A stretch of 64,000 nt of DNA, from NCBI RefSeq assembly GCF_028368995.1, contig NZ_JAQNDL010000003.1:2112001-2176000 (forward strand). Reading direction: 5' to 3'. The position numbers were made by a program, and so were the translations under genes. This DNA is from Nannocystis bainbridge (GTDB lineage Bacteria > Myxococcota_A > Polyangia > Nannocystales > Nannocystaceae). The notes beneath the pieces were generated by a model that saw nothing but the letters and a program-made list of their open reading frames with translations, was not told the origin of the DNA and searched no databases. Positions 27,986 to 63,057 of this stretch are shown in pieces. Every line of letters starts with the position of its first letter. Positions within the stretch are counted from its first letter, which is position 1.

Positions 27986-29392
27986 GTGAGCAGCACCCCC
28001 GAGACCCCCGCCTCCAGCGCGCCGCTGCAGCCCGAAGACCTCACGGGGTTCTTCCGCCGCGCCGAACGCCCCGACCGCCGGACCCACAAGATCGGCACCG
28101 AACACGAAAAGTTCGGCGTGTTCGTCGCCGACGGCGAGTACCGCCCGGTCGAGTACGAGGCCCACGTCCTGGCGGTCATGAATAGCTTCATGGAGCGGTT
28201 CGGCTGGCAGCCGGGCGGCGAACGCGGCAACGACGGGGCGCTCATCAGCCTCGTACGCGACGGCGCCTCGATCACGCTCGAGCCGGGCGGCCAGTTCGAG
28301 CTCAGCGGCGCACCCCTGGCCGACGTCCACCTCACCTGCCAGGAGTTCACGCAGCACCAGCGCGAGCTTCACGCGGTGTCGCAGGAGCTGGGGATCGCCT
28401 GGATGGCGTCGGGCTTCCATCCGTTCGCCACCCGCGAAGAGATCCACTGGATGCCCAAGCCGCGCTACGCGGTGATGCGGGCCTACTTGCCGACCGTCGG
28501 CCAGCGCGGCATCGACATGATGCTGCGCACGTGCACGGTGCAGGCCAACTTCGACTTCGCGTCGGAGGAGCAAGCCGGGACCCGGCTGCGCCTGGCGATG
28601 GGGGTGTCGGCGCTGACGACGGCGCTGTTCGCCAACTCCCCTTATAAGGAGGGCGAGGACCGCGGGTTCGCGTCGCTGCGCAGCGACAACTGGACCGACG
28701 TCGACGCCGCCCGCTGCGGGCTGCTGCCGCTGGCGTTCGAGGCGCCGTTCTCGTACGAGCGCTACGCCGCGTGGGCGCTGGCGGTGCCGATGTTCTTCAT
28801 CCGGCGCCAGGGCCGCTACATCCCGCTGCACGTGCCGTTCCGCGAGTACATGGCGACCGGCTACGTCGACCCGGACGGGGTCCGCCACACGGCGACGCTG
28901 GGCGACTGGGAGCTGCACCTCAGCACGCTGTTCCCGGAGATCCGCCTGAAGCCGTACCTCGAGGTCCGCGGCTGTGATTCGGTGCAGCAGAACATCCTCT
29001 GCGCGCTGCCGGCGCTGTGGAAGGGGCTGCTCTACGACGACGACGCCGGCGAGGCAGCGTGGGAGCTGGTGGCCGACCTCGACTTCGGCGAGCGGCTGAC
29101 GCTGTGGTCCGAGTGTCGCCAGGCGGCCCTGGCGTCGCCGCGCGTCCGCGCGCTGTGCCAGCGCCTGCTCACCATCGCGCGCGAGGGGCTCGACCGCGCC
29201 GACATCCGCGACCGTCGCGGCCGCACGGAGGCGTTCTTCCTCGACCCGCTCGAGGCGCTGGTCGCCGCCGGCACGTCGGCCGCCGACGTCGCGCGAGCCA
29301 AGATCGGCCCCCACCCCGGCCGCGACGTGGCGGCCCGCCGCGCGTTCGTCCGCGCGTTCCACTTCGCCGGCGCCGGGCTCGAAGAGGGCTGA
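27986..29392 (+). CDS. gshA: Glutamate-cysteine ligase (GCS2, plant/alphaproteobacterial type)
   Basis: IGTEHEKF, SITLEPGGQFELSG, WMPKPRY, TCTVQANFD, HLSTLFPEIRLK; GTG start after GGAG. Confidence 0.9.
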   Translation: MSSTPETPASSAPLQPEDLTGFFRRAERPDRRTHKIGTEHEKFGVFVADGEYRPVEYEAHVLAVMNSFMERFGWQPGGERGNDGALISLVRDGASITLEPGGQFELSGAPLADVHLTCQEFTQHQRELHAVSQELGIAWMASGFHPFATREEIHWMPKPRYAVMRAYLPTVGQRGIDMMLRTCTVQANFDFASEEQAGTRLRLAMGVSALTTALFANSPYKEGEDRGFASLRSDNWTDVDAARCGLLPLAFEAPFSYERYAAWALAVPMFFIRRQGRYIPLHVPFREYMATGYVDPDGVRHTATLGDWELHLSTLFPEIRLKPYLEVRGCDSVQQNILCALPALWKGLLYDDDAGEAAWELVADLDFGERLTLWSECRQAALASPRVRALCQRLLTIAREGLDRADIRDRRGRTEAFFLDPLEALVAAGTSAADVARAKIGPHPGRDVAARRAFVRAFHFAGAGLEEG

Positions 29393-29459
29393 CCTCTCGG
29401 GCATGTTCTCGAGGGCATGTCCGAGAGGGCATGTCCGCAGGAACATGACCTAACAAGCA
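29390..29459. repeat. Tiled array of five degenerate 14-bp TGTCC-N4-GGACA units
   Basis: TGACCTCTCGGGCA/TGTTCTCGAGGGCA/TGTCCGAGAGGGCA/TGTCCGCAGGAACA/TGACCTAACAAGCA. Confidence 0.85.
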
Positions 29460-29541
29460 GGAGCCGCGCGGGCGAGGAAGCGGACGCTCGCGCCTCCGGT
29501 CAAACAGGGCGCGGCGCGAGGACATGTCCCTCGCGCCGGCC

Positions 29542-31296
29542 TCACTCGTCGTCGTCGCGCAGGTAGGACGGCAGGTCCTCGATCAGCTCGACGCGGCTCA
29601 GCTCCTGGATGTCGTCGTCGACCGGCGGGGGCGGCGGAGGCTTGCGCGCCGGCGGGGGCGGCGGCTTGCGCGGGTTCGGCGGCTTGGGGCTCGGGCCGCG
29701 CGGGCCGACCGCGGCCGCGCCGGAGCCGGCGCGCGGCTTGCCGACCGGGGCGCCGAGCTCGACGACCTTCTTCTTGGGAGTGCGGTGGCGCAGGACCGGG
29801 GCGCCGCTTTCGGCGTCGACGTCGATCGCCGGCAGGCCGGGCATCGGCGGGGTGTCGCGGGTGCGCGCCGGTTGGGCGACCGGCTCGTCGTCGTCGTCGT
29901 CGAAGCCGTGCGCCGGCGGCAGGTTGGGCGCGTCGTCGTCGTCGTCGAGCAGCGCGCCGCGCACGTCCTCCATCGACGAGCGACGCACCGGGGCCTGCGA
30001 GCGCGTCGGCGGCGGCGACTCATCGTCGTCGTCGTCGTGCAGCACGCCGCGTACGTCGTCGATCGACGAGCGACGCACGGGCGCCTGCGAGCGCGGCGGC
30101 GGTGACTCGTCGTCATCGTCGTCGTGCAGCGCGTGGCGCTCGTCTTCCATGGACGGACGGCGCACCGGCGCCTGCGGCGAGCGCATCGGCGGCGGCGCGT
30201 CGTCGTCGTCGTCCAGCACCCTGCGCACGTCGTCGATCGACGAGCGGCGCACCGGCGGCGAGACGGGCCGGCGCGCGTCCTCGACCGCGGCGCGATGCAC
30301 CGGCCGGATGTCTTCGCGGCGCGGATCCTCGGGCGCCGCGTGGCGCACCGGCGGCGCGTCGTCGTCGTCGATCAGGACGCCGCGCGCGTCGTCCAGCGAG
30401 GCCCGCCGCGCCGGCGCGTCGTCGCGGCGGCGCAGGTCGTCGAACGCGGCGCGCCGGACCGGCCCAGCGTCCTCGAACATGCCGCCGCGACCGAGGTCGA
30501 GCGGCGGATCGTCGTCGCGCGGCTCGTCGTCGTCACTCAGGGTGGGCAGCGGCAGGTCGTCGTCGTCGTCCTGGATCGGCATCCGGACGTCGTCGTCGTC
30601 GTCGATGAAGCCCGACGCGTGCGCGCTGGTGTGCGAGGACACCGTCGGCGCGCGCGGTTCGTCGCGGTCGTACCGCATGCTGGGGTAGAACAGGTCGCTG
30701 ACGCCCGAGCCCTCGCTCGCGTCCTCGTCGGGGATCCCCAGCACCAGGGCCGCCGACTCTTCGCTGCTGATGCCGAGCGCCGCGGCCAGCGGCAAGGTCG
30801 CCGAGAGGTCGGCCGGCGGCGAGTGGTTCGACGACGAGTAGTCGCTCTCGCGCTGGGCCGCGAGCGCGAAGCTCCGCAACAGCGTCGGACGCGGCTCCTC
30901 CGCGGCCGGCTCCTGCTGGCGGTACGGGTACGGGCGGCTGAGCTTGAGCATCGACTGGAAGCGGGCGAACCCGCCGAGCCCGGAGTCGGGGTCGTCGTCG
31001 ATCACCGGGGCCGACGGCTGCGACGAGGTCGCCGCCGTGACCGCCTGGCGCAGGTCGGCCGGGATGTCGCCGTCGAGCTCGTCGAACTCGGTGCGGAAGT
31101 CGTCGCTGTCGCGGCGGACCGGCGCGCTGTCCCTCGAGACATGTCCCGAAGGACCGCCGAGGAGCTCGCCCAGCGTCGAGTCAGGGTCGAGGCCCTGGAG
31201 CAGCACGTTGGCCCGCGCGCGCGCCCACGCGAGCAAGGCCGGCACTTCCCTGGGGCCGTAGCCTTCGCGCGCGAGCAGGTCGTCGGGCTGCGGCAT
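29542..31296 (-). CDS. Low-complexity Asp/Pro/Arg-rich protein with ~30-aa tandem repeats
   Basis: 584-aa ORF 39 bp downstream of alaS; repeats like APVRRSS(I/M)(D/E)DVRxxLxDDDDD. Confidence 0.7.
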   Translation of the reverse strand: MPQPDDLLAREGYGPREVPALLAWARARANVLLQGLDPDSTLGELLGGPSGHVSRDSAPVRRDSDDFRTEFDELDGDIPADLRQAVTAATSSQPSAPVIDDDPDSGLGGFARFQSMLKLSRPYPYRQQEPAAEEPRPTLLRSFALAAQRESDYSSSNHSPPADLSATLPLAAALGISSEESAALVLGIPDEDASEGSGVSDLFYPSMRYDRDEPRAPTVSSHTSAHASGFIDDDDDVRMPIQDDDDDLPLPTLSDDDEPRDDDPPLDLGRGGMFEDAGPVRRAAFDDLRRRDDAPARRASLDDARGVLIDDDDAPPVRHAAPEDPRREDIRPVHRAAVEDARRPVSPPVRRSSIDDVRRVLDDDDDAPPPMRSPQAPVRRPSMEDERHALHDDDDDESPPPRSQAPVRRSSIDDVRGVLHDDDDDESPPPTRSQAPVRRSSMEDVRGALLDDDDDAPNLPPAHGFDDDDDEPVAQPARTRDTPPMPGLPAIDVDAESGAPVLRHRTPKKKVVELGAPVGKPRAGSGAAAVGPRGPSPKPPNPRKPPPPPARKPPPPPPVDDDIQELSRVELIEDLPSYLRDDDE

Positions 31297-31334: not shown

Positions 31335-34010
31335 TCAGCCGAGCTGCGCGGCGAGGGCGCTGCCGGCGGCCTCGATGGCAGCGGGCAAGCCGGCGGCGTT
31401 GGGGCCTCCGGCCTGGGCCAGGTCGGGCCTGCCCCCACCGCGTCCGCCGACGTGCGCGGCGAGGGCGGCGATGAGGTTGCCGGCGTGGACCTTGCCGGCG
31501 AGGTCCTTGGTGACGGCGACCAGCAGCGAGGCCTTGCCGTCCTTCTCGGCGCCGAGGACGATCACGCCCGAGCCGAGGCGATCGCGCAGGGTGTCGGCGG
31601 CTTCGCGCAGGGCCTTGGGGTCGGCGACGCTGACGACCTTGGCGAGCAGCTTGACGCCGGCGACCTCGGCGATCGCGTCGGCGCTGCCGCCTCCGCCGAC
31701 GGCGAGCTTGCGCTGCAATTCGCCGATCTCGCGCTCGCGCTTCTGCGCGCTCGCCTGCAGGCGACCGAGCTTGTCGAGCACGTCGCCGGGGCCGCTGGCG
31801 TGCAGCTCGCTGGCGGCCTTGTCGAGGATCTGCACGGTCTGCTGGAGGTGGTTCAGCGCGTTCATGCCGGTCACCGCCTCGATGCGGCGCACGCCCTGGG
31901 CGATGCCGACCTCGCTGACGATGGCGAACAGGCCGATGTCGCCGGCGCGGTGGACGTGGGTGCCGCCGCACAGCTCGACGCTGTCGCTGCCGATCCGGAC
32001 CACCCGCACCTGCTCGCCGTACTTGGCCTCGAACAGGCCGATCGCGCCGGCGGTCTTGGCGTCGACGGGGCTCATCTCGCGCGTGTCGGTGTCCGCGTTG
32101 GCCAGCGTCATCTCGTTGACGATGCGCTCGATCTGCTGCTTCTGCTCCGCCGTGATCGGGCGCGGGTGCGAGAAGTCGAAGCGCAGGCGGTCGGGCGACA
32201 CCAGCGAGCCCTTCTGCGCCACGTGGGTGCCGAGCACCGCGCGCAGGGCGTGGTGCAGCAGGTGGGTCGCGCTGTGGTTGCGGCGGATCGCGGCCCGGCG
32301 CGCGCCGTCGACCGTGAGCGTGACGAGGCGCCCGACCTCGAGCGTGCCCCGGGTGACCTTGCCGCGGTGGATGTGCACGTCGCCGGTCGGCTTGAGCGTG
32401 TCGGCGATCTCGACGCGCACGCCCTCGCCCTCGGCGATGCCGATGTCGCCGACCTGGCCGCCGCTCTCGCCGTAGAACGGGGTGACCTCGGTGATGAACT
32501 CGACCTCGTCGCCCTCCTTTGCCGCCGTCTTCTCGACGCCGCCGACGGCCAGCGCGAGCACGCTGGTGCGGCCCGAGAGCTCGGCGTAGCCGGTGAAGCG
32601 AGCCTGCTTGGCGAACCGCTCCTTGAAGGAGAAGTAGAGGTTGCCGATCGCCTTGTCGCCGCCGCCGAGGTTGGCCGCCGCGCCGGCCGTCTGGCGCGCC
32701 TGGACCTCCTGCTTGACGGCCTCCTCGTCGAGGGTGAGGCCCTTCTCGCGGCTGAGGATCCCGGTGAGGTCGATCGGCAGGCCGTAGGTATCGTAGAGCT
32801 CGGCGGCGACGCCGAGCGGGAACGCGGTCTCGCCGGCGGGCAGCTCGGTGACGGCGCCCTCGAACAGCCGCAGGCCGCGCTTGAGGGTGCGACGGAAGCC
32901 CTCCTCCTCGCCGCGCACGACCTCCTCGATGGTGGCTGCCCTTTCGACCAGGTTGGGATAGGCCTCGCCGAACTCCTCGACGACCTTCTTGCAGACCTCG
33001 TGGAAGAACAGGTTCTCGAGCCCGACCTTCTCGCCGAAGCGGATCGCGCGGCGCATGATCCGGCGCAGCACGTAGGGGCGAGTGTCGCGGTCGGGGAACA
33101 CGCCGTCGGCGATCAAAAAGGCGGTCGCGCGCGCGTGGTCGGCGATGACGCGGAACGGCGCCTCACCGGCCCCGAGGTCGTGGGCGGGCGCACCGGCGAG
33201 CCGCTTGGCGAGGTCGACGAGCGGGGTGAGCAGCGAGGTGCGGTAGTTGCTGCCGACGCCCTCGAGCACCGAGGCGAGCCGCTCGAGGCCAGCGCCGGTG
33301 TCGATGCTCGGCTTCGGCAGCGGCACGAGCCGACCATCGTCGAACTTCTCGTACTGCATGAACACGAGGTTCCACAGCTCGGTGTAGCGGCTGTCCTCGT
33401 AGGCCGGGCCGCGACCGGCGATGCCGGCGTCCGGCGGGGCCTGGTCGCCGTGGAAGATGTGGATCTCCGAGCACGGGCCGCACGGACCGGTCGGGCCCAT
33501 GGCCCAGAAGTTCTCCTTGGCGGGGAACCGGTAGATCCTGTCCTTCGGGACATACGCGGTCCACAGCTCGTAGGCCTCGTCGTCGGCCGGCGCCGACTCG
33601 CCCTCGCCGCTGAAGACGCTGACGACCAGCCGATCGGCCGGGATGCCGAGATCCTCGGTGAGGAACTCCCAGCCCCAGCGGATCGCGTCCGGCTTGAAGT
33701 AGTCGCCGAACGAGAAGTTGCCGAGCATCTCGAACAGCGTGTGGTGCCGCTCGGTGAAGCCGACGTTGTCGAGGTCGTTGTGCTTGCCGCCGGCCCGCAG
33801 GCACCGCTGCACGGTGACGGCCCGCTTGTACGGCCGCGGGTCACGCCCGAGGAAGGTGTCCTTGAACTGCACCATCCCGGCGTTGGTGAACAGCAGCGTC
33901 GGATCGTTGGCCGGCACCAGCGACGAGGACGGCACGACGGCGTGCTCGCGGGCGGCGAAGTAATTGAGGAATCGGCTGCGGATCTCGTGAGCGCGAATGG
34001 GCCGCTGCAT
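31335..34010 (-). CDS. alaS: Alanine-tRNA ligase
   Basis: DPTLLFTNAGMVQFK, FEMLGNFSFGDYFK, HSATHLLH editing motif, ELCGGTHV, GGGRPDLAQAG. Confidence 0.98.
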   Translation of the reverse strand: MQRPIRAHEIRSRFLNYFAAREHAVVPSSSLVPANDPTLLFTNAGMVQFKDTFLGRDPRPYKRAVTVQRCLRAGGKHNDLDNVGFTERHHTLFEMLGNFSFGDYFKPDAIRWGWEFLTEDLGIPADRLVVSVFSGEGESAPADDEAYELWTAYVPKDRIYRFPAKENFWAMGPTGPCGPCSEIHIFHGDQAPPDAGIAGRGPAYEDSRYTELWNLVFMQYEKFDDGRLVPLPKPSIDTGAGLERLASVLEGVGSNYRTSLLTPLVDLAKRLAGAPAHDLGAGEAPFRVIADHARATAFLIADGVFPDRDTRPYVLRRIMRRAIRFGEKVGLENLFFHEVCKKVVEEFGEAYPNLVERAATIEEVVRGEEEGFRRTLKRGLRLFEGAVTELPAGETAFPLGVAAELYDTYGLPIDLTGILSREKGLTLDEEAVKQEVQARQTAGAAANLGGGDKAIGNLYFSFKERFAKQARFTGYAELSGRTSVLALAVGGVEKTAAKEGDEVEFITEVTPFYGESGGQVGDIGIAEGEGVRVEIADTLKPTGDVHIHRGKVTRGTLEVGRLVTLTVDGARRAAIRRNHSATHLLHHALRAVLGTHVAQKGSLVSPDRLRFDFSHPRPITAEQKQQIERIVNEMTLANADTDTREMSPVDAKTAGAIGLFEAKYGEQVRVVRIGSDSVELCGGTHVHRAGDIGLFAIVSEVGIAQGVRRIEAVTGMNALNHLQQTVQILDKAASELHASGPGDVLDKLGRLQASAQKREREIGELQRKLAVGGGGSADAIAEVAGVKLLAKVVSVADPKALREAADTLRDRLGSGVIVLGAEKDGKASLLVAVTKDLAGKVHAGNLIAALAAHVGGRGGGRPDLAQAGGPNAAGLPAAIEAAGSALAAQLG

Positions 34011-38693: not shown

Positions 38694-38777
38694 TGCATCG
38701 AGGGACATGCCCTCACAGACATGTCCCTCGCGCCAGGCCCTCTCGGACATGCCCTCTCGGACATGTCCCTTCGCTCA
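38694..38777. repeat. Tiled array of six degenerate 14-bp TGTCC-N4-GGACA units
   Basis: Exact 14-bp register from TGCATCGAGGGACA to TGTCCCTTCGCTCA, filling a convergent intergenic gap. Confidence 0.85.
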
Positions 38778-40544
38778 GAACGTGATGACCGGGCCGATGT
38801 TGAGGTCGATGAGGAGGCTGGTGGTCCGCGGGAACCACACGCCGACCTGAGCCTCGCCGAACAGGCCGAAGTGCTTGGCGGCCTGCCAGTGGAAGCCGAA
38901 CACGCCGCCGATCATGCCGCCGCCGATCCGGACGGTGTCGATGCGCTGGGACTTGTCGGCGTTGGCGGTCACCGCCGCCGCGCCCTGGATCGCGTTGGTG
39001 CTCTCCGTCCCGCTCGGGTCGCCGCAGTCGTACTTGTACGGCCACACCGCGGTGCACTGACCGCCGCCCTCGAACGCGGCCTCCTTGTCGTCGGGCACCG
39101 AGTTGCCGTTGCGGTCGTTGGCGAAGCCCATCGGCACGCGCAGGCGGGTGAAGCCGCCGCCGAGGAAGCCGCCGGCGAACAGGCGGAACTTCTTCTCGTC
39201 CGAGCCGAAGAAGTACTTGATCTTGAGGCCGCCCGCGATCGTCACGCCCGGCTTGCTGCGGATGCCCTCCGGGTTGGGGTTCGTGACGTCGTTCATGTAC
39301 GAGTCCGGCAGCGACGCCTTGGGGTCGTCGCGGTAGACCTTCGAGCCCGTGACCGCCTGGATGCGGAGGAAGCCCGAGAGCACCAGCTTCTTGCCGATCC
39401 GCCCGCCGATCTCGGGGGCGACGTGGAACGGCGCCGAGGCCATGCCGGTGCTGACCTTGTGGTGGGCCGCGCACTCGCCCGCGTTGTAGGCCATCGCCAG
39501 CTGGTCGACCGAGTACGGCGTGCCGTAGGCCATCACCGTCGGGCCCATCTGCGTCTGGTACTGGACCGGGTCGCCGGGCAGGTCGCCGGTGCCGCTGCTC
39601 CACCGCGCCAGCGCGCAGGCGAACTCCTTGAGGCCGTAGTTGAAGTTGCCGGCCGGGGTGTACTGGCTGTACGTCTGGTCGGCGACCCCGCGGGCCACGC
39701 CGATGCCGGTGCCGAGACCGAGGTTGATGAAGATCTTCGGCAGCGAGTGCTTCGGCGGCGGCGGCTTCTCCGGCTCCTTCTCCTTCGGCGTCTCCTTGAC
39801 GCACTTCACGTCGGCGACGAGCGGGTTGTCCTGCGCGCCCTTGTTGCCGAGCGCCTTGTTGGCGCCGTCGTAGACGTAGACGAAGTACTCGACCGGCTTG
39901 TCGCCGTGCTCCGAGGCCAGCACCTGGGCGGTGGCGATGTTGCCGAAGGCGTCCATCGTCACCGACTTGAAGTCGCCCGAGTCGCCGACGTTGCGCCAGT
40001 AGAGCCCGACCTGGCCGCCGTCGGGGATGCCGGATGTGGCGACCTCGAAGTTCAGGTCCTGGCCGCAGCCGTCGGTCGACGGCGCGGTGTGGCGGACCGA
40101 CTCGCTCGGCGCCGACACGCCCGAGTCCTTGCGCGCCTTGTCGAGCAGCTTCTGCAGGTCGGGCGAGCGCAGCTCGGTCGGCAGCGTCACGTGGTAGTCG
40201 GCCTTGACCGCGCCGACGAACGCCGCCGTGGTGTCGTTCTTGTTGCCCGAGTTCGAGAAGATGATGACCGCCCGCAGCATCCGCAGCGGCGCGGTCGTCG
40301 GGTCCTCGGCGGCGCTGCCCGTGAGCGCCTGGTCGAGGCCCGCCAGCGCCTGGTCGAGCTCGAGGTTGTTGTACTGCCCGAGCGCCTTGTTATAGGCGGC
40401 CTTGAGGTCGTCGCGGCCGTCGGCGAGGGCTGTCCCCGAGGACAGGAGCACGGCCAGCGACAGCGCGGCGGTCAGCAAGCGCGAAGGGGAAAGCCAGCTC
40501 AGGTCCAGGGGCCGACGGGGACGGACGAGGGTCTGCGTTCGCAC
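38775..40544 (-). CDS. Exported protein: helical N-domain, beta-sandwich, Pro/Lys linker, probable outer-membrane beta-barrel
   Basis: Signal peptide ending ALA; amphipathic beta-strands; C-terminal Phe (NIGPVITF). Confidence 0.7.
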   Translation of the reverse strand: MRTQTLVRPRRPLDLSWLSPSRLLTAALSLAVLLSSGTALADGRDDLKAAYNKALGQYNNLELDQALAGLDQALTGSAAEDPTTAPLRMLRAVIIFSNSGNKNDTTAAFVGAVKADYHVTLPTELRSPDLQKLLDKARKDSGVSAPSESVRHTAPSTDGCGQDLNFEVATSGIPDGGQVGLYWRNVGDSGDFKSVTMDAFGNIATAQVLASEHGDKPVEYFVYVYDGANKALGNKGAQDNPLVADVKCVKETPKEKEPEKPPPPKHSLPKIFINLGLGTGIGVARGVADQTYSQYTPAGNFNYGLKEFACALARWSSGTGDLPGDPVQYQTQMGPTVMAYGTPYSVDQLAMAYNAGECAAHHKVSTGMASAPFHVAPEIGGRIGKKLVLSGFLRIQAVTGSKVYRDDPKASLPDSYMNDVTNPNPEGIRSKPGVTIAGGLKIKYFFGSDEKKFRLFAGGFLGGGFTRLRVPMGFANDRNGNSVPDDKEAAFEGGGQCTAVWPYKYDCGDPSGTESTNAIQGAAAVTANADKSQRIDTVRIGGGMIGGVFGFHWQAAKHFGLFGEAQVGVWFPRTTSLLIDLNIGPVITF

Positions 40545-40623
40545 AGGATCTCGGGCTCCTTCTAGCCGAACGCCGGCTCAGCGCCGGCGTTGGGTGTCCA
40601 GGGGGTTCGGCGCGCGGCGCCGA

Positions 40624-46064: not shown

Positions 46065-46961
46065 ATGTTCCGCGGAGCCCTCACCGCCCTGATCACTCCC
46101 ATGCGGCCCGCGGCCGGCGGCGCCTCCGAGCTCGACGAGCCCGCCCTGGTCGCCCTCGTCGAGGCCCAGATCGCCGCGGGGATCCACGGTCTCGTGCCGT
46201 GCGGCACCACCGGCGAGGCCAGCACCTTGAGCGCTGCCGAGCACCTCCGCGTCGTCGAGCTCGTCGTCAAGACCGCGCGGCGGCGCGTCCCCGTGCTCGC
46301 CGGCGCCGGCGGCAACGACACCGCCAGGGCCGTCGAGCTCGCGCGCGCCTGCAAGGCTGCCGGGGCTGACGGCACGCTGCAGGTCACTCCTTACTACAAC
46401 AGGCCGACCCAGGCCGGCCTCGTCGCCCACTTCCGCGCCATCGCCGAGGCCAGCGACCTCCCGGTCGTCGTCTACAACGTGCCCGGGCGGACCGGCTGCG
46501 ATCTGCTGCCCGAGACCGTCGCCGAGCTGGCCCGCGACCCGAAGATCGTCGGCATCAAAGAGGCCACCGGCGACATGAACCGGGCCGCCCGCCTGCGTGA
46601 GCTGCTGCCCGGGCGCCGCGACTTCGCCCTGCTCTCCGGCGACGACTTCACCGTCCTGCCCTTCCTCGCGCTCGGCGGTCACGGCGTCATCTCCGTCACC
46701 TCCAACGTCGCCCCGCAGTGGGTCGCCGGTCTGTGCGACGCCGCCGCGGCCGGCCGCTGGGACGACGCCCGCGCCCTGCACGACCGCCACTACCCGCTGG
46801 CCCGCGCCCTCTTCAGCCAGCCCAACCCGATCCCCGTCAAGGCCGCCGTCGCCCTCCAGGGCCGCTGCACCGGCGACCTCCGCCTCCCGCTCCTCCCGCT
46901 CGATCGCCAGGGCCGCGAGGGCCTGGCCGACACCTTGCGCACCCTCGGTCTTCTGTCCTAG
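46065..46961 (+). CDS. dapA: 4-hydroxy-tetrahydrodipicolinate synthase
   Basis: GTTGE, PYYNRP, YNVPGRT, GIKEA, SGDD, NPIPVK. Confidence 0.97.
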   Translation: MFRGALTALITPMRPAAGGASELDEPALVALVEAQIAAGIHGLVPCGTTGEASTLSAAEHLRVVELVVKTARRRVPVLAGAGGNDTARAVELARACKAAGADGTLQVTPYYNRPTQAGLVAHFRAIAEASDLPVVVYNVPGRTGCDLLPETVAELARDPKIVGIKEATGDMNRAARLRELLPGRRDFALLSGDDFTVLPFLALGGHGVISVTSNVAPQWVAGLCDAAAAGRWDDARALHDRHYPLARALFSQPNPIPVKAAVALQGRCTGDLRLPLLPLDRQGREGLADTLRTLGLLS

Positions 46962-46991
46962 AAGACAGGTCCCAAAGGCCAGCCACCGATT

Positions 46992-50218: not shown

Positions 50219-50225
50219 CGGGCCC

Positions 50226-50810
50226 GTGGCCTTCCCGCCGCTCGACGAGATCTTGCCGCATCGGCCGCCGATGCTGCTGCTCGACGCGCTGACGGCGGCC
50301 GAGGCCGAGTCGGCGACCTGCCGCGCCACCGTGCGGGCGGGCGCCCCGTTCGTGGTCGGCGAGCGCGTCTCCTCGCTCATCGCGCTCGAGTACTTCGCCC
50401 AGACCGTCGCCGCCCTGTTCGCCTACAAGGCCCGCAGCGGCGCCGGCGGGCCGTTCCGCGGCCTCCTCCTCGGCGCCCGCGACCTCGAGCTCGCCGCCTC
50501 GCACCTGCGCGTCGGCGACGTCCTCGACGTCCACTGCCGCGAGCAGTGGGCCAGCGGCCCGGTCGCCCAGTTCCACTGCACCTTGAACCGCGGCGGCGAG
50601 CAATTGGCCACCGGCGCCGTCACCGTCCTGCGCGGCGACCCGGCCGAGTTCGCCGCCGGCGGCTCCGACCTGTCCCCCGGGACAGCCGCCTCCGACCTGT
50701 CCTCCGGGACATCCAGCCTATCCTCTACGCCAGCCTCCGACCTGTCCCTCGGGACATCCGCCGGGGAGCCGTCCGTCACTCGCCTCGACCTCGTGGAGCC
50801 CGCGCCATGA
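50226..50810 (+). CDS. Hotdog-fold dehydratase partner (ApeP-like) with repeat-derived tail
   Basis: ILPHRPPMLLLD, LEYFAQ, GLLLGAR; tail SDLSPGT/SDLSSGT/SDLSLGT. Confidence 0.8.
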   Translation: MAFPPLDEILPHRPPMLLLDALTAAEAESATCRATVRAGAPFVVGERVSSLIALEYFAQTVAALFAYKARSGAGGPFRGLLLGARDLELAASHLRVGDVLDVHCREQWASGPVAQFHCTLNRGGEQLATGAVTVLRGDPAEFAAGGSDLSPGTAASDLSSGTSSLSSTPASDLSLGTSAGEPSVTRLDLVEPAP

Positions 50811-52039: not shown

Positions 52040-52111
52040 ACCGGCCGCGGCGCCAGCCCGAGGCGCGCCCTCGCCCCTCGGGCCTATCCCCCGGCATCAG
52101 GCAGTCCCCGC

Positions 52112-54684: not shown

Positions 54685-54754
54685 TGCGAGACGCAGTCGG
54701 CAATTCGCGAAGCCCCCGCCCCCACTCCCCAAGGACATGTCCCCAAGGACAGAT

Positions 54755-57620: not shown

Positions 57621-58457
57621 ATGCACGATCCGGAGCTCGCGCTCGCCACCGCCGCCGCCCACGCCGCCGGGGCGGTGCTCCTCCGCCACTTCGAGGGCGT
57701 GTTCGAGGTCGAGACCAAATCCTCCCCGATCGACCTCGTCACCACCGCCGACCGCGCCGCCGAGGCGGTCGTGATCGAGGCCCTGCGCAGCGTTCATCCT
57801 GACCATTCGTTCCTGGCCGAAGAGTCCGGTCTCTCGGGACATGACCCGAAGTACACGATCTTGCCCGGCCCCGACGAGCTGCGGTGGGTCATCGACCCGC
57901 TCGACGGCACCACCAACTTCGCCCACGGCTTCCCTCACTTCTGCGTCTCGATCGCCCTGTGCGACGCTCACGGCCCGCGGCTCGGCGTGATCCACGACCC
58001 GATCCGCGGCGAGACCTTCGCCGCCGTGCGCGGCCAGGGCGCCCGGCTCGACCGCAATCCGCGCCCCGGTCGGGACCTCGCGGTGACCCACGCCGGTCGC
58101 CTGCAGCAGGCGCTGATCGCCACCGGCTTCTCGTACCAGCGGGCCACCACCCGCGACGACAACCTGGCCGAGTTCTGCCGCGTGGTCCCGCAGGTGTGTT
58201 GCGTGCGACGGGCCGGCAGCGCCGCGCTCGACCTCGCCTACGTCGCCGCCGGCCGGCTCGACGGCTACTGGGAGTACCACCTGCAGCCGTGGGACGTCGC
58301 CGCCGGCGCGCTGCTGGTGCAGGAGGCGGGCGGACAGATCCGGCGTTTGAGCGGCGCCCCGTGGCAGCTCGGCTGCGCCGACGTCGTCGCCGCCGGCCCG
58401 ACCCTGATGCCGATCTTGCTCGACGAGCTGCGCGCGGCCAAGATCGAGGCGCCATGA
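57621..58457 (+). CDS. suhB: Inositol monophosphatase family protein
   Basis: DLVTTAD, AEES, WVIDPLDGTTNFAHG, GSAALD, WDVAAG. Confidence 0.9.
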   Translation: MHDPELALATAAAHAAGAVLLRHFEGVFEVETKSSPIDLVTTADRAAEAVVIEALRSVHPDHSFLAEESGLSGHDPKYTILPGPDELRWVIDPLDGTTNFAHGFPHFCVSIALCDAHGPRLGVIHDPIRGETFAAVRGQGARLDRNPRPGRDLAVTHAGRLQQALIATGFSYQRATTRDDNLAEFCRVVPQVCCVRRAGSAALDLAYVAAGRLDGYWEYHLQPWDVAAGALLVQEAGGQIRRLSGAPWQLGCADVVAAGPTLMPILLDELRAAKIEAP

Positions 58458-58891: not shown

Positions 58892-58944
58892 ACTGCTCCT
58901 GCGGCGCGCCGTGGGCCTCAACGAAGGCGCCGCCCGGCTCGACC

Positions 58945-59185
58945 CGTCCTCCGGGACATTTTTTATTGCGAGCCCAGGGCCCATGTGCCGGTTCGCGATG
59001 GGCCGAGCCGGCTCCCTGTCCTCAGGGACATCTGATTCCCAGGGCCTCCGGTGTCGGCTCGCAACGAGCCGAGCCGACGCGCAACGACCTGTCCAAAAGG
59101 ACATTTGATTCCAAGCCAGGGACCCGCTGTCGGTTCGGGCCGAGCCGACGCGCCACGACATGTCCAAAGGGACATCTTATTCCGC
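58945..59185. repeat. Four ~72-bp degenerate tandem units, each carrying TGTCC-N4-GGACA
   Basis: Cores at 58945, 59017, 59090, 59161 (spacing 72, 73, 71), each followed by an AT-rich ...ATT tract. Confidence 0.8.
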
Positions 59186-59393
59186 CCCCATGCTCGGGCC
59201 CGAACGACGCTCGCGCCTCCGCCCCTCCGCCCCTCTCGCCCGCGGGAATAACCCCCACCCCCTCGCGCGTGACCTACCCGAGCCGCGCGCGATGAGCCGC
59301 GGCGCCATGACTTCTCGAGCATGTCCCATCGGACATCTCGCCACCACGTGCGCGTGAGGCCTGGGCGCCGGCACGCCGCCGGAGGACCCTGCC

Positions 59394-60464
59394 ATGACCT
59401 CGATGCCCCCCAGCTCTGCCGGTCCCCCCGGCCATCTCCTCGCCCAGCGGCGTACCCGGACCTTGACCCTCGCCGTCGGCCTCGCCGCCGTCAGCGTGCT
59501 GGGCCTCGCCGTCCTGCTGCCGCCCCCGCCTGACGCCGGCAGCCAGGCCATCCGCGGCGCCGGCGTGTTCGCCCTGCTCGCCTTCGGCTTCCTCCTGCTC
59601 GGCGCTCTCCTGCGGCGCGTCCAGCTCGGCTGGCACCGCAGCCTGCGCGGCCTGCTCGTCGGCGCCGGCGAGGCCGTGTGGCGCCTCAGCCTGCGCCTGT
59701 GGCCGCGCGAGCCCGCCAGCGACGCCCAGGCCCCGCCCATGCGCCTGGGCGAGCGCATCGCCCTCGTCGCCGGCCTCGGCCTCACCGCCCTCGACGTCGT
59801 GCTCACCACCCTCCTGCTGCGCGACGTCTTCCCCGAGCCGCCCTACCGCTTCGACCTGTTCGGCCTGCTCTCGCCCGCGGCCGCCGAGTGGTCGTTCTAC
59901 GTCGCCGTCGCCGCCTTCAAGGCCGTGCTCGAGGTGTGGTTCGGCGTGTTCGACACCATCCGCGGCGGCGGCAGCACCCTGCGGTGGTTCGTGCTCGGCG
60001 GCGCCTCGGCCTTCGACGCCGCCCTGGCCGCCTCGCGCGGGCTCGTGCTCGCCGAGCAGGGCCTGGTCGGCTCCTCGGTCATGGTCAGCAACATCATCTT
60101 CATCGGCTTCGGCCTCGCCGTCCCGTGGGTCGCCGCGCACACCGGCGGCCTGCTGGTCAGCGCCATGGACGGCTGGCTGGCCCGCCTCGGCGTCCTGCGC
60201 CTCATCTCCGCCCTCCCGCGCCTCGCCGTGCTCGCCCTCCTGTGGCTGGCCGCGATCGCCGTCGGCGCCCCCGCCGTCGCCCTCGTGCTCGCCGTCGGCC
60301 TCGTGGTCGCCGTGTGGTCGGCCCTCGACGACGTCATCGCCACCATCCTCGGCCACGACGACGGCGCCCAGGCCCTCGCGCTCCCGGCCGAGGTCATGCG
60401 CGCCGCCGACGAACCCACGAACCCGCCGCACGCCCCGCTGCAGATGACCGCCAGCGTCTCCTGA
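59394..60464 (+). CDS. Multi-pass membrane protein of unknown function
   Basis: 356 aa, many hydrophobic segments, GGAGG Shine-Dalgarno, high GC3. Confidence 0.75.
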   Translation: MTSMPPSSAGPPGHLLAQRRTRTLTLAVGLAAVSVLGLAVLLPPPPDAGSQAIRGAGVFALLAFGFLLLGALLRRVQLGWHRSLRGLLVGAGEAVWRLSLRLWPREPASDAQAPPMRLGERIALVAGLGLTALDVVLTTLLLRDVFPEPPYRFDLFGLLSPAAAEWSFYVAVAAFKAVLEVWFGVFDTIRGGGSTLRWFVLGGASAFDAALAASRGLVLAEQGLVGSSVMVSNIIFIGFGLAVPWVAAHTGGLLVSAMDGWLARLGVLRLISALPRLAVLALLWLAAIAVGAPAVALVLAVGLVVAVWSALDDVIATILGHDDGAQALALPAEVMRAADEPTNPPHAPLQMTASVS

Positions 60465-60637
60465 GACCTGTCCCTTCGGTCATCTCCTGCCAGTACTCCC
60501 GCGACATGTCCCATGAGACATGTCTCCGCGCCGACCGGCGCGCCTGGACCGACATGTCCCTTTCGCCATGTCCTGTGATTCCTCTCCGCACCCGTCTTGA
60601 AGCCTGCCCCTCACCCTGCGCCGATCGGAGCTGTCCC

Positions 60638-61618
60638 ATGAGCCATCTTCAACCCCTCGCCGCTCTCGGCGGCCTGCTGCTCGGCGGCGCCCTGCTCGGC
60701 GGCCTGCTCTGGTGGCAGTCCGGCCTGCAGCCGCCGGCGCCCCACGACGACTGGCGCCCGCCCTGCCTCGCCCGCCTCGGCAAGACCTACGCCGCCTTCG
60801 CCCCGACCCGCGCCGCCGACGAGCGCCTGGCCCGCAACCTCCTGTTCGGCGTCGACCGCAGCGGCAGCAACCGCGAGCTCGCCGACGCCCAGCTCGACGC
60901 CGCCGTCGCCTACGCCGCCACCCTCGGCCCCGAAGCGGGCGTCGGCGTGCTGCTGATCACCGACCGCAGCGACCGCTCGACCACCCCCGACATGCCCTTC
61001 GAGCCAGGCGAGGTCGGCCAGCGCTGGACCGCCGCCCCGGTGCTGTGCGACGGCTGCAAGCCCGACAGCCTGTTCCAGCAGAAATGCCTCGAGCAGCTCG
61101 AGGTCGCCCAGGGCCGCCGCGTCGGCGAGCTCAACGCCGGCGAGGACGCCCGCCGCACCGGCCTGCAGGAGCAGCGGGCCCTGCGGATCCACGCCTGGCG
61201 CGACCAGGTCGCCGGCTACACCCCCAAACCCGGCACCTCGCTCCTGGCCTTCTTCACCAAGCTCGCCGACCTCCCGCCCGTGCGCCGCGAGCCCGAGCGC
61301 ACGGTCGTCGTCGTCATGTCGGACCTCGAGGCCAGCCAGGCCGGCGAGCGCAAGCAGCTCGACAAGTTCGAGCGCGCCTACCGGTCCTCCGGGACCTGTC
61401 CCGAAGCATCATGGCTGCCGAAGGGCATCTCCGGCCTCGAGATCGCCCTGGTCCAGAGCGTGCGCGACGGCATCGACGCCGACCTGTGGGCCCGCCGCTG
61501 GGACGCCGTGCTCACCTGCGCCGGCGCCCACGTCCGCCGCCACCGCTACAGCACCGCCGTCCCGCTGCGCCAGCTGCTCGACGACCCACCGGGCCCCGCG
61601 CTCGCGCTCGCCGACTGA
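60638..61618 (+). CDS. Membrane-anchored VWA-like domain protein
   Basis: N-terminal TM; MIDAS-like FGVDRSGS, GTS, VVVMSD. Confidence 0.7.
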   Translation: MSHLQPLAALGGLLLGGALLGGLLWWQSGLQPPAPHDDWRPPCLARLGKTYAAFAPTRAADERLARNLLFGVDRSGSNRELADAQLDAAVAYAATLGPEAGVGVLLITDRSDRSTTPDMPFEPGEVGQRWTAAPVLCDGCKPDSLFQQKCLEQLEVAQGRRVGELNAGEDARRTGLQEQRALRIHAWRDQVAGYTPKPGTSLLAFFTKLADLPPVRREPERTVVVVMSDLEASQAGERKQLDKFERAYRSSGTCPEASWLPKGISGLEIALVQSVRDGIDADLWARRWDAVLTCAGAHVRRHRYSTAVPLRQLLDDPPGPALALAD

Positions 61619-61640
61619 CCCGGCCGGGCCTCCATTCGGA

Positions 61641-61710
61641 TGTCCCCAAGGACATGCCCCTCCAGACATGCCCTTTCGAGCATGCCCGGGCGGACATGTC
61701 CTCTAATTCG
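61641..61710. repeat. Tiled array of four to five 14-bp TGTCC-N4-GGACA units
   Basis: TGTCCCCAAGGACA/TGCCCCTCCAGACA/TGCCCTTTCGAGCA/TGCCCGGGCGGACA/TGTCC between convergent stops. Confidence 0.85.
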
Positions 61711-62620
61711 CCGGGACCACCCCGAGCTCGCGCAGCCACGCCAGCATCGTCGCCGGCCACGTGCCCATCTGCGGCATCCCGGGCCGCTGGGCCAGGCCGA
61801 CCCCGTGGCGCCCGTCGTCGTACAGCTGCAGCCGCGACGAGGCCCCGCGCGCCCGCGCCGCCTCGTCGTAGAGCTCGCTGTTGTGGAACACCACCTTGGT
61901 GTCGTGGCGCGAGTGGACCAGCATCGCCGGCGGCGCGTCGGCCGTGACGCGCTGCTCGAGCGACAGCTCCTGCACCCGCTCCGGCGTCGCCGGCTCGTCG
62001 CCGAGCATGCTGCGCTTGCTGCGTTGGTGGGCCCAGCGATCGTCGAGCGTCACCACCGGATAGACCATGACGATGAAGTCCGGCCGGCACGACACCTGCT
62101 CGAGCGGGTCCTGGGCCGCGGCGTCGCCCTGCTTCGGGCACGCGGTGGCGACGAAGCCCGCCAGGTGCCCGCCGGCCGAGTAGCCGACGAAGCCGATCTT
62201 GCTCGCGTCGACCCCGAGCTCGCCCGCCTGCGCGCGCACCCGCTGGACCGCGCGCCGGCCGTCGGCCAGGAAATCGCGGTGGTGATAGCCGTCGCCGCTG
62301 ACGCGGTAGCGCAGCACCACCGCCACGAACCCCTGCTCGCTCAGCCAGCGGGCCGTCGGGAACGCCTCCGGCCGCAGCCCGCCGGTGTGCGCGTAGCTGC
62401 CCCCGGGCGCCACGATCGCCGCCGCCCCGTTGGCCTTGCCCGGCGCCGGCAAATAATAGAACAGCTCCGGCCGGTCGGCCTTGGCCGTCCCGCGGGCCCC
62501 CGGCGCCCCGTCGGGCCACAGCAGCTCGTGCCGGGCGAAGTCCCGCGGCGTGCAGCCGAGCGCGACCACCAGCCCCAAAGCACATGTCCCCAGGGACATG
62601 TATTTCAAGAAATGTCTCAT
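61703..62620 (-). CDS. Alpha/beta hydrolase (esterase) lipoprotein
   Basis: PGGSY oxyanion motif, GYSAGG nucleophile, HGVG; lipobox ALGC. Confidence 0.88.
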   Translation of the reverse strand: MRHFLKYMSLGTCALGLVVALGCTPRDFARHELLWPDGAPGARGTAKADRPELFYYLPAPGKANGAAAIVAPGGSYAHTGGLRPEAFPTARWLSEQGFVAVVLRYRVSGDGYHHRDFLADGRRAVQRVRAQAGELGVDASKIGFVGYSAGGHLAGFVATACPKQGDAAAQDPLEQVSCRPDFIVMVYPVVTLDDRWAHQRSKRSMLGDEPATPERVQELSLEQRVTADAPPAMLVHSRHDTKVVFHNSELYDEAARARGASSRLQLYDDGRHGVGLAQRPGMPQMGTWPATMLAWLRELGVVPAN

Positions 62621-63057
62621 GCGCCAGCCTCGGCGTCGATGTGGGCGCAGTACGGCGCGATCTCGGCGCGGAAGCTGTCGGTCCACGGGACCGGCCGCTT
62701 GCTCTCGGGATCGACGCGGACCACCGTGCGCCGGCCGGTCGCGTGCTCGATGTCCTCGTCGAGCGGCATCACCCGCAGGCCGAAGGTCAGGCTGGTCCGC
62801 CCGAGCCGCTCGACCCACACGCGCACCCGCACCTGGCCGGTACCGATCACCGGCCGCTGGTAGTCGAGGGAATTCGCGCGCACCAGGTGGTACTGGTCGG
62901 GGTTCGAGTTGAAGTCGAGGACCCCGCCCCAGCCGAGCTGCCGCCAGAACGAGCCGATCGCGTGCTCGAAGAGGAGCAGGTAGCGGGCGTTGTGGAGGAT
63001 GTGGAACGCGTCGAGGTCGTCGAAATAAACCCCGTGGATCGTCTCGTGGAAACGCAT
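62617..63057 (-). CDS. Acyl-CoA thioesterase (4HBT/YbgC-like)
   Basis: VYFDDLDAFHILHNARY, LGRTSL, PVPW. Confidence 0.88.
   Translation of the reverse strand: MRFHETIHGVYFDDLDAFHILHNARYLLLFEHAIGSFWRQLGWGGVLDFNSNPDQYHLVRANSLDYQRPVIGTGQVRVRVWVERLGRTSLTFGLRVMPLDEDIEHATGRRTVVRVDPESKRPVPWTDSFRAEIAPYCAHIDAEAGA

Follow-up and report, generated by a model that had tools for sequence, protein, structure and literature searches.

The window analyzed here is a 64,000-nucleotide stretch of Nannocystis DNA in which copies of an interrupted palindrome, TGTCC-N4-GGACA (hereafter the box), are found behind, between and within genes. The first-pass annotation of this DNA had reported twelve exact copies, and we confirmed all twelve in place. 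Only 0.07 exact copies were expected (100 dinucleotide shuffles, largest count 1). Allowing up to one mismatch gave 28 sites compared to 1.81 expected, and allowing up to two gave 64 compared to 28.7 (largest shuffle 40). Most of the degenerate copies in that annotation were also recovered, at 6206, 19118, 38154, 54110 and 61383 and in the arrays described below; the entry at 52534-52561 was absent at up to two mismatches. The scarcity of boxes early in the window was as it had described: there were no exact and two one-mismatch boxes in the first 29 kb, and 12 and 14, respectively, beyond it.

Four tiled degenerate boxes (2, 2, 1 and 1 mismatches) occupy 29390..29445, starting at 29390, 29404, 29418 and 29432 in exact 14-bp register. 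They lie in the spacer where a GCS2 gene (27986-29392, +) and an ORF at 29542-31296 (-) converge. As RNA, 29384-29451 is predicted to fold with -38.9 kcal/mol (z -5.4). Two tiled one-mismatch boxes (31128..31155, starting at 31128 and 31142) are immediately 3' of the alaS stop and within the called 5' part of the same ORF. An exact box at 33539..33552 is in the part of alaS (31335-34010, -) for the catalytic domain, where it encodes YVPKDRI. Two rare codons complete it, TAT (10.8% of those for Tyr) and AGG (1.7% of those for Arg), and it was exact in both orthologues compared (genomes G010 and G005). Between a T2SS-F-like gene (37517-38674, +) and an ORF at 38775-40478 (-), the convergent spacer holds five degenerate boxes in exact 14-bp register (38708..38777), with a predicted RNA fold of -27.7 kcal/mol (z -2.2). 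That ORF contains an exact box 34 nt within its called 5' end (40431..40444), with arms that are exact in G010 and G005 and a centre that is different. At 46954..46981, a one-mismatch box and a tiled two-mismatch box (starting at 46954 and 46968) span the stop of dapA, such that the TAG codon sits in the free centre; dapB is the next gene.

Three exact boxes, 27 and 45 nt apart (50671..50756), are in a gene for an ApeP-like dehydratase (50226-50810, +). They are translated as DLSxGT in the C-terminal tail of the protein, in which the Pfam domain stops at residue 143 of 194, and their copy number varies in G010 and G005. A two-mismatch box and a tiled exact box (54724..54751) are 3 nt downstream of the stop of a Ser/Thr kinase gene (54755-57358, -), and two tiled two-mismatch boxes (57828..57855, starting at 57828 and 57842) are within an inositol monophosphatase gene (57621-58457, +). 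Downstream of an HNH gene (58454-58891, +) there is a tandem repeat of approximately 72 nt with one one-mismatch and three exact boxes (58945..59174), the copy number and content of which are hypervariable among six genomes. An exact box at 59322..59335, about 60 nt upstream of an ATG at 59394, has arms kept in six of six genomes around five different centres; its predicted RNA hairpin has -12.6 kcal/mol (z -4.0). Three degenerate boxes (60469, 60507 and 60555, spanning 60469..60568; 1, 1 and 2 mismatches) lie downstream of an ORF at 59463-60464 (+). The convergent spacer at 61618-61703 holds an exact, a tiled two-mismatch and a one-mismatch box (61641..61696). There were degenerate versions at the same place in four of five other genomes, an insertion in G003, and an exact box in the equivalent spacer of a distant member of the genus (G006). 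Finally, an exact box and two degenerate tiles (62585..62626) run into the stop of a thioesterase gene (62617-63057, -); the arms were kept in six of six genomes with T/C and G/A variation, and the centres differed.

A scan of the whole genome confirmed the excess of boxes and found it to be stronger than had been proposed. There were 1987 exact copies, compared to approximately 13 expected from the genome's own pentamer counts and three copies of the reversed pattern. Spacers of 0 to 11 nt other than 4 gave 0-16 copies each, and no permutation of the arms gave more than 83. With up to one mismatch there were 6245 sites (164 in the reversed control), and with up to two there were 13,775 (3,316 in the control), giving a rough figure of 10,000 recognizable boxes. 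Exact copies were present on all five contigs at approximately 15-23 per 100 kb without a regional trend, and we saw no origin- or terminus-related pattern in density across the contigs. All ten relatives from the same genus were also rich in boxes (114-2090 copies each), and genomes from other genera had 0-161 copies each. The box family is specific to the genus.

The description of the box as two conserved arms around a free centre held genome-wide, as the commonest 4-nt centre occurred in only 107 of the 1987 exact copies. The fuller form is symmetric, R-C-M-TGTCC-Y-Y-R-R-GGACA-K-G-Y, made of half-sites R-C-M-TGTCC-Y-Y with centres 9 bp apart, and its logo reaches into the spacer as YY/RR. 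Dispersed copies have in common only the ten arm bases and these weak symmetric flanks. The head-to-tail register noted in the window was likewise general: a neighbor with up to two mismatches was present at ±14 in 11.5% of flanks, compared to 0-0.1% at ±12, 13, 15 or 16. The decamer GGACATGTCC occurred 956 times, compared to 4-19 times for the same two arms at other spacings. The centres of neighboring tiled units were neither identical nor complementary (complementarity 1.29 compared to 1.16 ± 0.07 in shuffles for 191 adjacent pairs, and 1.09 compared to 1.09 for 33 triplets). Because neighboring centres are unrelated, the 14-bp register is maintained without recent duplication. Many of the loci consist of tandem repeats, whose periods are 21, 36, 38, 42, 48 or approximately 72 nt; all carry the core, and their copy number varies between species. 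An Eco57I-type methylase gene adjoins one box array.

Boxes are markers of gene 3' ends. Convergent spacers had 15.2 exact copies per 10 kb, tandem spacers 6.2, divergent spacers 2.1 and coding DNA 0.83. Sites with up to one mismatch were present in 738 of 1335 convergent spacers. A window from -8 to +60 relative to the stop contained such a site in 1742 of 7992 genes, compared to 362 of 7992 for the mirrored window at the start. In the first 20 nt past the stop, convergent spacers had 11.2 sites per kb and tandem spacers 4.8, and beside starts the values were 1.2 per kb (tandem) and 0.2 per kb (divergent). These values depend on genes from a crude caller (83% coding), so that start positions are approximate and some long spacers may contain missed genes. 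The box is thus palindromic, lineage-restricted, adjacent to stops and usable in both directions, as are palindromes of the TRIT, DUS-terminator and REP class.

A substantial part of the exact boxes (762, or 38%) was in called coding DNA. This number compares to a mean of 20.75 in eight shuffles of synonymous codons, so that the excess stands against both this null and the pentamer-based one. All three reading frames were used (64, 267 and 431 copies), tolerant linkers hold copies, and there were arrays of up to seven exact boxes within genes, for example in a kinase-WD40 linker. In 89 site-triples, in which a site was defined in one genome and the other two were compared, identity was 0.78 in the arms, 0.60 in the spacer and 0.67 in the flanks. 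For 48 triples within genes, 94.2% of third codon positions were identical in the arms, compared to 82.5% in the flanks (Fisher p 5e-5, with triples that are not independent). DNA-level purifying selection therefore acts on the arms and not on the spacer, also within genes. Like HIP1, the box is over-represented in genes and in spacers and is conserved above the neutral rate.

Orthologous sites were maintained across species with differing centres, and the same intergenic spacers carried sites in members of the genus at approximately 60% protein identity. Among 82 aligned site comparisons, seven were scored as gaps, all in or beside tandem arrays or in poorly aligned spacers, and there was no clean insertion polymorphism. 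Accessory DNA is without boxes: they were scarce in low-GC accessory regions (Spearman 0.47), and two box-free 20-kb stretches were mostly missing from the five closest genomes.

The first-pass annotation had stated that the box matches no described motif. We found no description of TGTCC-N4-GGACA in the literature searched. The kind of element is known, as there are lineage-specific palindromes at gene ends (TRIT, DUS terminators and REP) and hyper-abundant palindromes (HIP1). These are long-standing puzzles, and the lineage-specific palindromes that have been solved revealed dedicated machines: a transposase (RAYT) in the case of REP and a pilin (ComP) in that of DUS. Nannocystis offers an unusually clean case, with ten fixed bases, a free centre, a 14-bp lattice, a copy between more than half of convergent gene pairs, and selection for a DNA word that can be measured even where it opposes the preferred codons of essential genes (alaS, for example). 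This combination puts the reader within direct reach of a pull-down, and in strains that can be cultivated its function is open to direct tests by mapping of 3' ends and by read-through reporters. The box can also serve as a marker of resident compared to acquired DNA in genomes of 11-13 Mb with many biosynthetic gene clusters and as a gene-end flag for annotation, and it may be relevant to heterologous expression of Nannocystis gene clusters.

The reading we prefer, with somewhat less than even confidence, is that the gene-end box is read sequence-specifically by a symmetric, tiling DNA-binding protein. Such a protein, presumably a dimer, would recognize boxes on double-stranded DNA and would occupy adjoining boxes in the 14-bp register. 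Bound arrays behind genes could then be boundary elements in both directions, for example a roadblock or insulator against read-through transcription, or a nucleoid or topological anchor. Single boxes elsewhere would be placed at the least cost, in interdomain linkers and C-terminal tails. We infer the reader on duplex DNA, its polymerization and the effect of its binding. The earlier proposal of a dimeric, possibly polymerizing protein agrees with the specific arms, free centre, symmetric half-sites and strict register; no candidate protein was identified, and the genes beside 11 checked arrays had no DNA-binding family in common. Variation in the arms also favors a protein. Single-arm variants greatly outnumbered compensated variants, and transcript-oriented transitions that keep or break a wobble pair numbered 325:280 in tandem spacers and 290:359 in genes, indicating that the constraint is sequence-specific rather than structural. 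The tiling may be likened to that of MetJ met-boxes and Fur boxes, which are contiguous in-register palindromes where each dimer contacts its neighbor; those arrays are at few promoters, whereas Nannocystis boxes number in the thousands and are at gene ends. We know of no bacterial precedent for gene-end sites of one protein in such numbers (about 10^4 on the chromosome). The arrays of up to seven exact boxes in genes count against a protein, because a strong roadblock there should be harmful, and because tiled arrays also form long hairpins (z -5.4), a continuous stem would need the 14-bp register equally. We consider it doubtful that the most specific version holds, a protein-read gene-end code in which an abundant dimeric protein polymerizes on tiled boxes behind most convergent genes as a sequence-specific boundary, whether transcription roadblock or insulator, topological barrier, or mark of self DNA that is missing from newly acquired DNA. 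If true, protein-read boxes would give bacteria an equivalent of insulator elements, with a dedicated reader.

A less probable but serious alternative to a DNA-binding protein is that the box is an RNA-level 3'-end element, similar to TRIT or REP, that folds as a hairpin in transcripts. The stem, which reads identically from both strands, would measure 5-8 bp for a single box and 10-25 bp for tiled boxes. Through factor-assisted termination, processing by RNase III or a block to exonucleases, it would define or protect the 3' ends of mRNAs; copies in genes would be masked by ribosomes. The stop-anchored positions serving both directions are consistent with this, as are the predicted folding of tiled arrays (-38.9 kcal/mol, z -5.4) and the composition of intergenic perfect hairpins, in which the three top loop-proximal words all belonged to the box family (421-516 counts) and unrelated GC stems reached no more than 28. 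There are also hints of base pairing. Compensated double variants were mildly enriched (388 compared to 283 expected), and the outer flanks covary, with GGGCA opposite TGCCC in 29 cases compared to approximately 3.5 computed from flank frequencies. However, the outer extension of the stem was box-like rather than arbitrary in 67 of 98 cases, variants compatible with G-U pairs were not preferred on the transcribed strand, and a conserved stem with a free loop is the opposite of usual RNA-protein recognition. Single boxes fold weakly (-6 to -7 kcal/mol, z -1 to -1.5), and codon-level selection on boxes in genes would be left unexplained. A canonical intrinsic terminator is rejected by the lack of a U-tract: at least five T in 8 nt were found beside 11-13% of intergenic boxes on either side, and T-rich tails showed no bias in orientation, with 122 downstream and 117 mirrored upstream of 632 at a threshold of four T (50 and 35 at five T). 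Canonical terminators were at chance in 46-64 kb of the window (4 compared to 3.1), and the only window matches at the Rfam 15 gathering score were five tRNAs, with none for the box.

The precedent for an RNA element is the "Tuberculosis Rho-independent terminator" motif (TRIT) of Mycobacterium, which has 147 palindromic copies, mostly bidirectional and narrowly distributed around stop codons, with a sequence conservation taken to imply a double-stranded-RNA-binding factor (PMC3152330). TRIT, DUS and REP are associated with 3' termini (PMC13714241). The box resembles TRIT (PMC3152330, PMC13714241) as a lineage-restricted, mostly bidirectional palindrome conserved in sequence and structure, tight to stop codons and without classical U-tract logic. 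The TRIT copies are a longer conserved stem-loop centred approximately 8 nt inside the coding end, whereas the box has 1987 exact 5-4-5 cores with a free centre that start after the stop and tile every 14 bp, and has 762 copies deep within genes under codon-level selection.

We think it unlikely that the box labels self DNA in the manner of DUS/USS or HIP1. An uptake, recombination or repair protein would prefer the box, molecular drive or selection would let it build up in long-resident DNA, and boxes behind genes would later be co-opted as terminator-like hairpins. This would fit a genus-specific motif with copies in coding and non-coding DNA, all three frames and tolerant linkers, that is depleted in low-GC accessory regions and missing from 20-kb stretches. 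Neisseria DUS, like the box, are poor in acquired DNA. Homologues of ComEC and DprA are present, but they are also in 10-11 of 14 control genomes, and we know of no report of competence or of an uptake bias in Nannocystis. Known uptake signals are asymmetric words and not fixed-spacer palindromes; DUS is an asymmetric 10-12-mer, sometimes in an inverted pair, whereas the box is always a fixed-spacer palindrome. Neither strict 14-bp tiling nor an 8-fold higher density in spacers than in genes is expected from drive alone. Neisseria DUS are similar to the box as short lineage-specific words in genes and spacers. Behind genes they form terminator-like hairpins, and they act as non-canonical terminators (PMC13714241). 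The HIP1 palindrome of cyanobacteria, GCGATCGC, is 15- to 300-fold over-represented and, like the box, is hyper-abundant, lineage-specific and conserved within and between reading frames and genes (PMC5861425); it is also the subject of 10.1101/2024.09.10.611283 and PMC13756078. HIP1 is a contiguous octamer tied to methyltransferases, whereas the box is interrupted, tiles every 14 bp and lies behind stops; gene-end anchoring and tiling are not mentioned in the abstract on HIP1 (PMC5861425).

It is quite improbable that the box is a selfish or mutational repeat without a function for the cell, either a REP/MITE-like miniature mobile element moved by an unrecognized enzyme, or a minisatellite core that is prone to slippage and gives rise to tandem arrays. 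The suggestion of a small selfish repeat was weakened by several findings. The Y1/RAYT transposase profile PF01797 matched none of the 11 genomes of the genus (64-91% complete), compared to control matches in six of 14 known genomes. Dispersed copies share nothing beyond the arms, neighboring centres are unrelated, orthologous sites are old and positionally stable with differing centres, no clean insertion polymorphism was seen in the 82 comparisons, and synonymous positions in the arms evolve under purifying selection. On the other side, there are core-bearing tandem repeats with a copy number that varies between species, and Mesorhizobium carries this palindrome within a REPIN-like doublet. 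The doublets have identical arms and spacer length, and searches of two genomes gave 49 and 105 copies, but nearly all of the copies listed have a fixed loop, TGCC/GGCA, and many are mirrored pairs approximately 124 bp apart. The Mesorhizobium doublet is a REPIN/MITE-like mobile element and not a free-centre box. REP/BIME elements, like the box, are extragenic palindromes that number in the hundreds to thousands and cluster downstream of genes where the spacer is tandem or convergent. The box differs from them in having no RAYT (0 of 11 genomes), only ten conserved bases with a free loop and flanks, and 38% of its exact copies in called coding DNA; we rejected REP/RAYT membership because there was no Y1 transposase and no conservation of a whole unit with loop and flanks. 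The dRS3/NIME arrays of Neisseria also have conserved arms, a variable centre and different repeat units with the same short palindrome, but their arms and spacer are unlike those of the box, and phage integration has been linked to dRS3.

An ordinary regulon operator or a parS/matS/Noc/SlmA-type positioning site is scarcely credible, even with a 5-4-5 palindromic layout that is typical of many dimeric regulators and a 59322 site conserved upstream of a gene: the parS, matS and Noc/SlmA class comprises tens of region-confined sites, and that analogy failed for thousands of copies (1987 exact) that sit at the 3' ends of genes and are spread across all five contigs without a regional pattern, while promoter-bearing divergent spacers were the poorest non-coding class (2.1 per 10 kb; 0.2 per kb beside starts) and a transcription-factor operator was rejected on densities of 4.8-11.2 per kb next to stops compared to 0.2-1.2 per kb next to starts.

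Exact copies of the box TGTCC-N4-GGACA (two 5-nt arms around a free 4-nt spacer) occurred 1987 times in the N. bainbridge assembly (11.05 Mb, 71.5% GC, five contigs), compared with 3 copies of the reversed control, in a whole-genome scan of the kind that the first-pass annotation had proposed. The same arms separated by any other spacer length from 0 to 11 were present in only 0 to 16 copies, and palindromes with permuted arms reached at most 83 copies each. There were 4258 sites with one mismatch and 7530 with two (reversed control: 161 and 3152), and the excess over the control in the three mismatch classes indicates that the genome contains about 10,000 recognizable boxes. The symmetric logo continues past the arms, with R-C-M ahead of the left arm and K-G-Y behind the right arm, and the spacer has a preference for YYRR. 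Box density was alike on all contigs, and the density map had no regional, ori/ter or macrodomain pattern on any of the five.

Within the window, all twelve exact copies first reported were recovered (12 of 12), and their rarity by chance was confirmed by dinucleotide shuffles, which gave 0.07 expected per window. Allowing up to one mismatch there were 28 sites (1.8 expected), and up to two mismatches 64 sites (28.7 expected). Most of the degenerate tiled copies described earlier are real, including a run of four units at 29390-29445, a run of five at 38708-38777, and two-unit pairs at 31128, 46954, 54724, 57828 and 61641; those placed at 52534-52561 were not found with up to two mismatches allowed. 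The scarcity noted ahead of 29 kb holds, with no exact and two one-mismatch copies in that part, where ribosomal, RNA polymerase and tRNA operons form one block running in the same direction. The stops of the Ser/Thr kinase gene (54755-57358, minus strand), the HNH gene (58454-58891, plus strand), the ORF at 60638-61618 and the thioesterase gene (62617-63057, minus strand) are each trailed by boxes within 3-53 nt.

The same placement was seen genome-wide. Genes were taken from our own simple codon-usage caller (8000 genes, 83% coding), for which stops are reliable and starts and long spacers less so. Exact boxes were intergenic in 1209 cases, inside called genes in 762, and across an edge in 16. 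Their density per 10 kb was 15.2 in convergent, 6.2 in tandem and 2.1 in divergent spacers, and 0.83 in coding DNA. At least one site with up to one mismatch was present in 738 of 1335 convergent, 988 of 3877 tandem and 232 of 1455 divergent spacers. Counted in 20-nt bins, such sites numbered about 25 per bin within gene ends and climbed to 953 over the first 20 nt past the stop, and the profile around gene starts was low and flat. Normalized for available spacer, the first 20 nt past the stop held 11.2 sites per kb in convergent and 4.8 per kb in tandem spacers, compared with 1.2 (tandem) and 0.2 (divergent) per kb beside starts; the fall in density with distance from the stop may be overstated owing to missed genes.

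The exact 14-bp tiling described for the window is upheld across the genome. A neighbor with up to two mismatches was found in 11.5% of flanks at 14 bp, 6.2% at 28, 5.6% at 42 and 3.1% at 56, compared with 0-0.1% at the off-register distances of 12, 13, 15 and 16 bp. The decamer formed at the junction of two tiled boxes, GGACATGTCC, which includes the CATG that arises where two tiles meet, occurred 956 times, compared with 4-19 times at other spacings. Spacers of neighboring boxes had no identity or complementarity to each other beyond chance. The register is therefore not the product of fresh duplication, and selection for a single long perfect palindrome, or long hairpin across tiles, does not explain it.

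Selection acts on the arms, inside genes as well as outside. At orthologous places the arms are kept and the spacers change, for example at boxes 59322 and 62585 (6 of 6 genomes). We used a design free of ascertainment bias, in which one of three genomes served to define a site and its two counterparts were compared over 400 kb of synteny. Across 89 site-triples, which are not independent, identity reached 0.78 in arms, compared with 0.67 for flanks and 0.60 for spacers. For the 48 in-gene triples, identity at third codon positions was 94.2% for arms, compared with 82.5% for flanks and 68% for spacers (Fisher p = 5e-5, with the same non-independence). The codon-shuffled null that had been proposed was also run: within-gene synonymous-codon shuffling left 15-24 boxes, compared with the 762 observed in genes. 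The box in alaS (31335-34010, minus strand), exact in both orthologues checked, codes for the conserved YVPKDRI and requires two rare codons, TAT (10.8% of Tyr codons) and AGG (1.7% of Arg codons). Coding boxes use all three reading frames (64, 267 and 431 copies) and typically lie in low-complexity linkers. Their hosts are real multidomain proteins, one with seven copies between its kinase and WD40 domains. Genus members at about 60% protein identity retain boxes at the same intergenic spacers.

What reads the box can be stated only tentatively. We lean toward a symmetric protein, a putative reader, that would recognize boxes on duplex DNA. This reading is favored by the conserved arms, the free center, and symmetric half-sites that extend into the spacer with their centers 9 bp apart. 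Single-arm variants far outnumber compensated variants, which we also count in favor of a protein on duplex DNA. The arms fit ATGT-N8-ACAT (PadR-type) if the flanks are A/T and CTGT-N8-ACAG (enterobacterial LexA-type) if they are C/G, and the 5-4-5 layout is FNR-like; each is a candidate lead. We checked 20 proteins by Pfam, 9 of them array hosts and 11 flanking large arrays, drawn from a set of 71 genes at the 40 largest clusters (70 in all), and found no DNA-binding family common to them; the hosts included kinases, a WD40 protein, a HEAT protein, an S49 peptidase and a MerR regulator. Separately, a five-box array (L150, contig C2:1484189-1488726) lies directly 5' of a gene for a 1332-residue protein with an Eco57I-type restriction-modification methylase domain.

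A hairpin acting in RNA is somewhat unlikely, and it is the strongest of the alternatives. Compensated variants are mildly in excess (388 vs 283), the outer flanks covary, the box family makes up the dominant perfect hairpins of intergenic DNA, and tiled arrays fold strongly (z = -5.4). However, single boxes fold weakly (z about -1 to -1.5), and the wobble signature of RNA is absent, as the transcribed strand has no preference for G-U-compatible variants (325 vs 280 in tandem spacers, 290 vs 359 in genes). Neither a U-tract nor a tail orientation bias was seen at boxes, classical terminators in the scanned 46-64 kb part were no more frequent than chance (4 vs 3.1 expected), and the only Rfam matches in the window were tRNAs. 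Among sequencing runs matched to the window, the entries listed were six metagenomes, kept as contigs, that shared at most 0.13 of its words, and none was an RNA data set.

A self-DNA signal resembling DUS or HIP1 seems improbable; competence genes are present in the genome, an observation that does not discriminate. We consider a selfish or slippage repeat still less plausible. Many box loci are also tandem repeats of locus-specific 21-72-nt units with the core in all of them, and six genomes differ in how many copies they have of the repeat behind the HNH gene. Membership in the REP/RAYT family fails, with a Y1 (RAYT) transposase in 0 of 11 genus genomes and no whole-unit conservation among the copies. 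A classical operator or positional site can practically be dismissed, and the analogy to parS, matS or Noc sites that had been drawn fails on copy number and distribution.

The box is carried by 10 of 10 other same-genus genomes (114-2090 copies) and by two other genera of the family (87 and 161 copies), with 0-7 copies in the other 18 genomes searched. Box-poor genomes from other genera of the family (G012 and G014-G018) have 3-5 copies each. Among one genome per species (185,579 species), two boxes in tandem were found in 49 stretches, 32 in Nannocystis-titled records, 14 in Mesorhizobium and 3 in stray MAGs. No comparable iterated palindrome was detected in sequence sampled from two sister genera (G011, 400 kb; G013, 150 kb); TGCAC-N5, with 23 copies, came closest. 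The TGTCC-N4-GGACA palindrome itself is also found in two Mesorhizobium genomes, 49 times in one and 105 times in the other. These copies have a fixed loop, TGCC/GGCA, in nearly all those listed (L060, L086 and other Mesorhizobium loci), and many form mirrored pairs about 124 bp apart. With its fixed loop and frequent mirrored pairing, the Mesorhizobium doublet differs in nature from the free-centered Nannocystis box and looks like a REPIN/MITE-like mobile element.

In keeping with the earlier remark that the box matched no motif that could be named, the literature searched, largely outside subscription journals, held no description of it for Nannocystis or any other myxobacterium. Elements of this kind are already known. 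Two papers describe elements at 3' termini, namely the palindromic TRIT of Mycobacterium (PMC3152330) and DUS terminators, REP and Correia elements (PMC13714241), and a third presents HIP1 as a hyper-abundant palindrome that is under selection and whose function is unknown (PMC5861425). The unusual features of the box are its core of ten bases around a free center, its strict 14-bp lattice, the proportion of convergent junctions that it serves, and the codon-level selection in genes.

Bins of 50 kb that are poor in boxes have lower GC (Spearman 0.47). Two 20-kb stretches that lack boxes have little counterpart in the five closest genomes, except for one 10-kb block shared with the same-genus genome G003 at 94% identity and short repeats; in contrast, a 5.5-kb piece of the window aligns to all five at about 90%. 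Lower-GC stretches without boxes at C1:1.10-1.30 Mb and C2:1.85-1.90 Mb, for the most part absent from those five genomes, are probably recently acquired islands.

Several other features of the window were apparent. Region 58891-59463 contains a hypervariable tandem array of an approximately 72-nt repeat, 3' of the small HNH endonuclease gene, which is translationally coupled to an inositol monophosphatase gene; G003 and another same-genus genome, G010, have an additional gene-sized insertion in the matching region. In the convergent spacer 61618-61703, other genomes have boxes only, and G003 (L017) has about 3 kb inserted. The one-mismatch box 46954-46967 lies within an operon junction, 30 nt ahead of dapB, and the dapA stop codon TAG falls in its free spacer. 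An aryl-polyene-like lipid gene set at 47816-52975 encodes ApeI-like and ApeP-like dehydratases, a halogenase-like protein, an acyl carrier protein, a ketosynthase and an acyltransferase, and the ApeP-like protein has a 50-residue tail built of box repeats. At about 40000-44000, GC skew switches sign (+0.03/+0.05 before, -0.11/-0.17 after) and the prevailing gene orientation goes from minus to plus; the coding strand is rich in C on either side, so the skew flip tracks gene direction.
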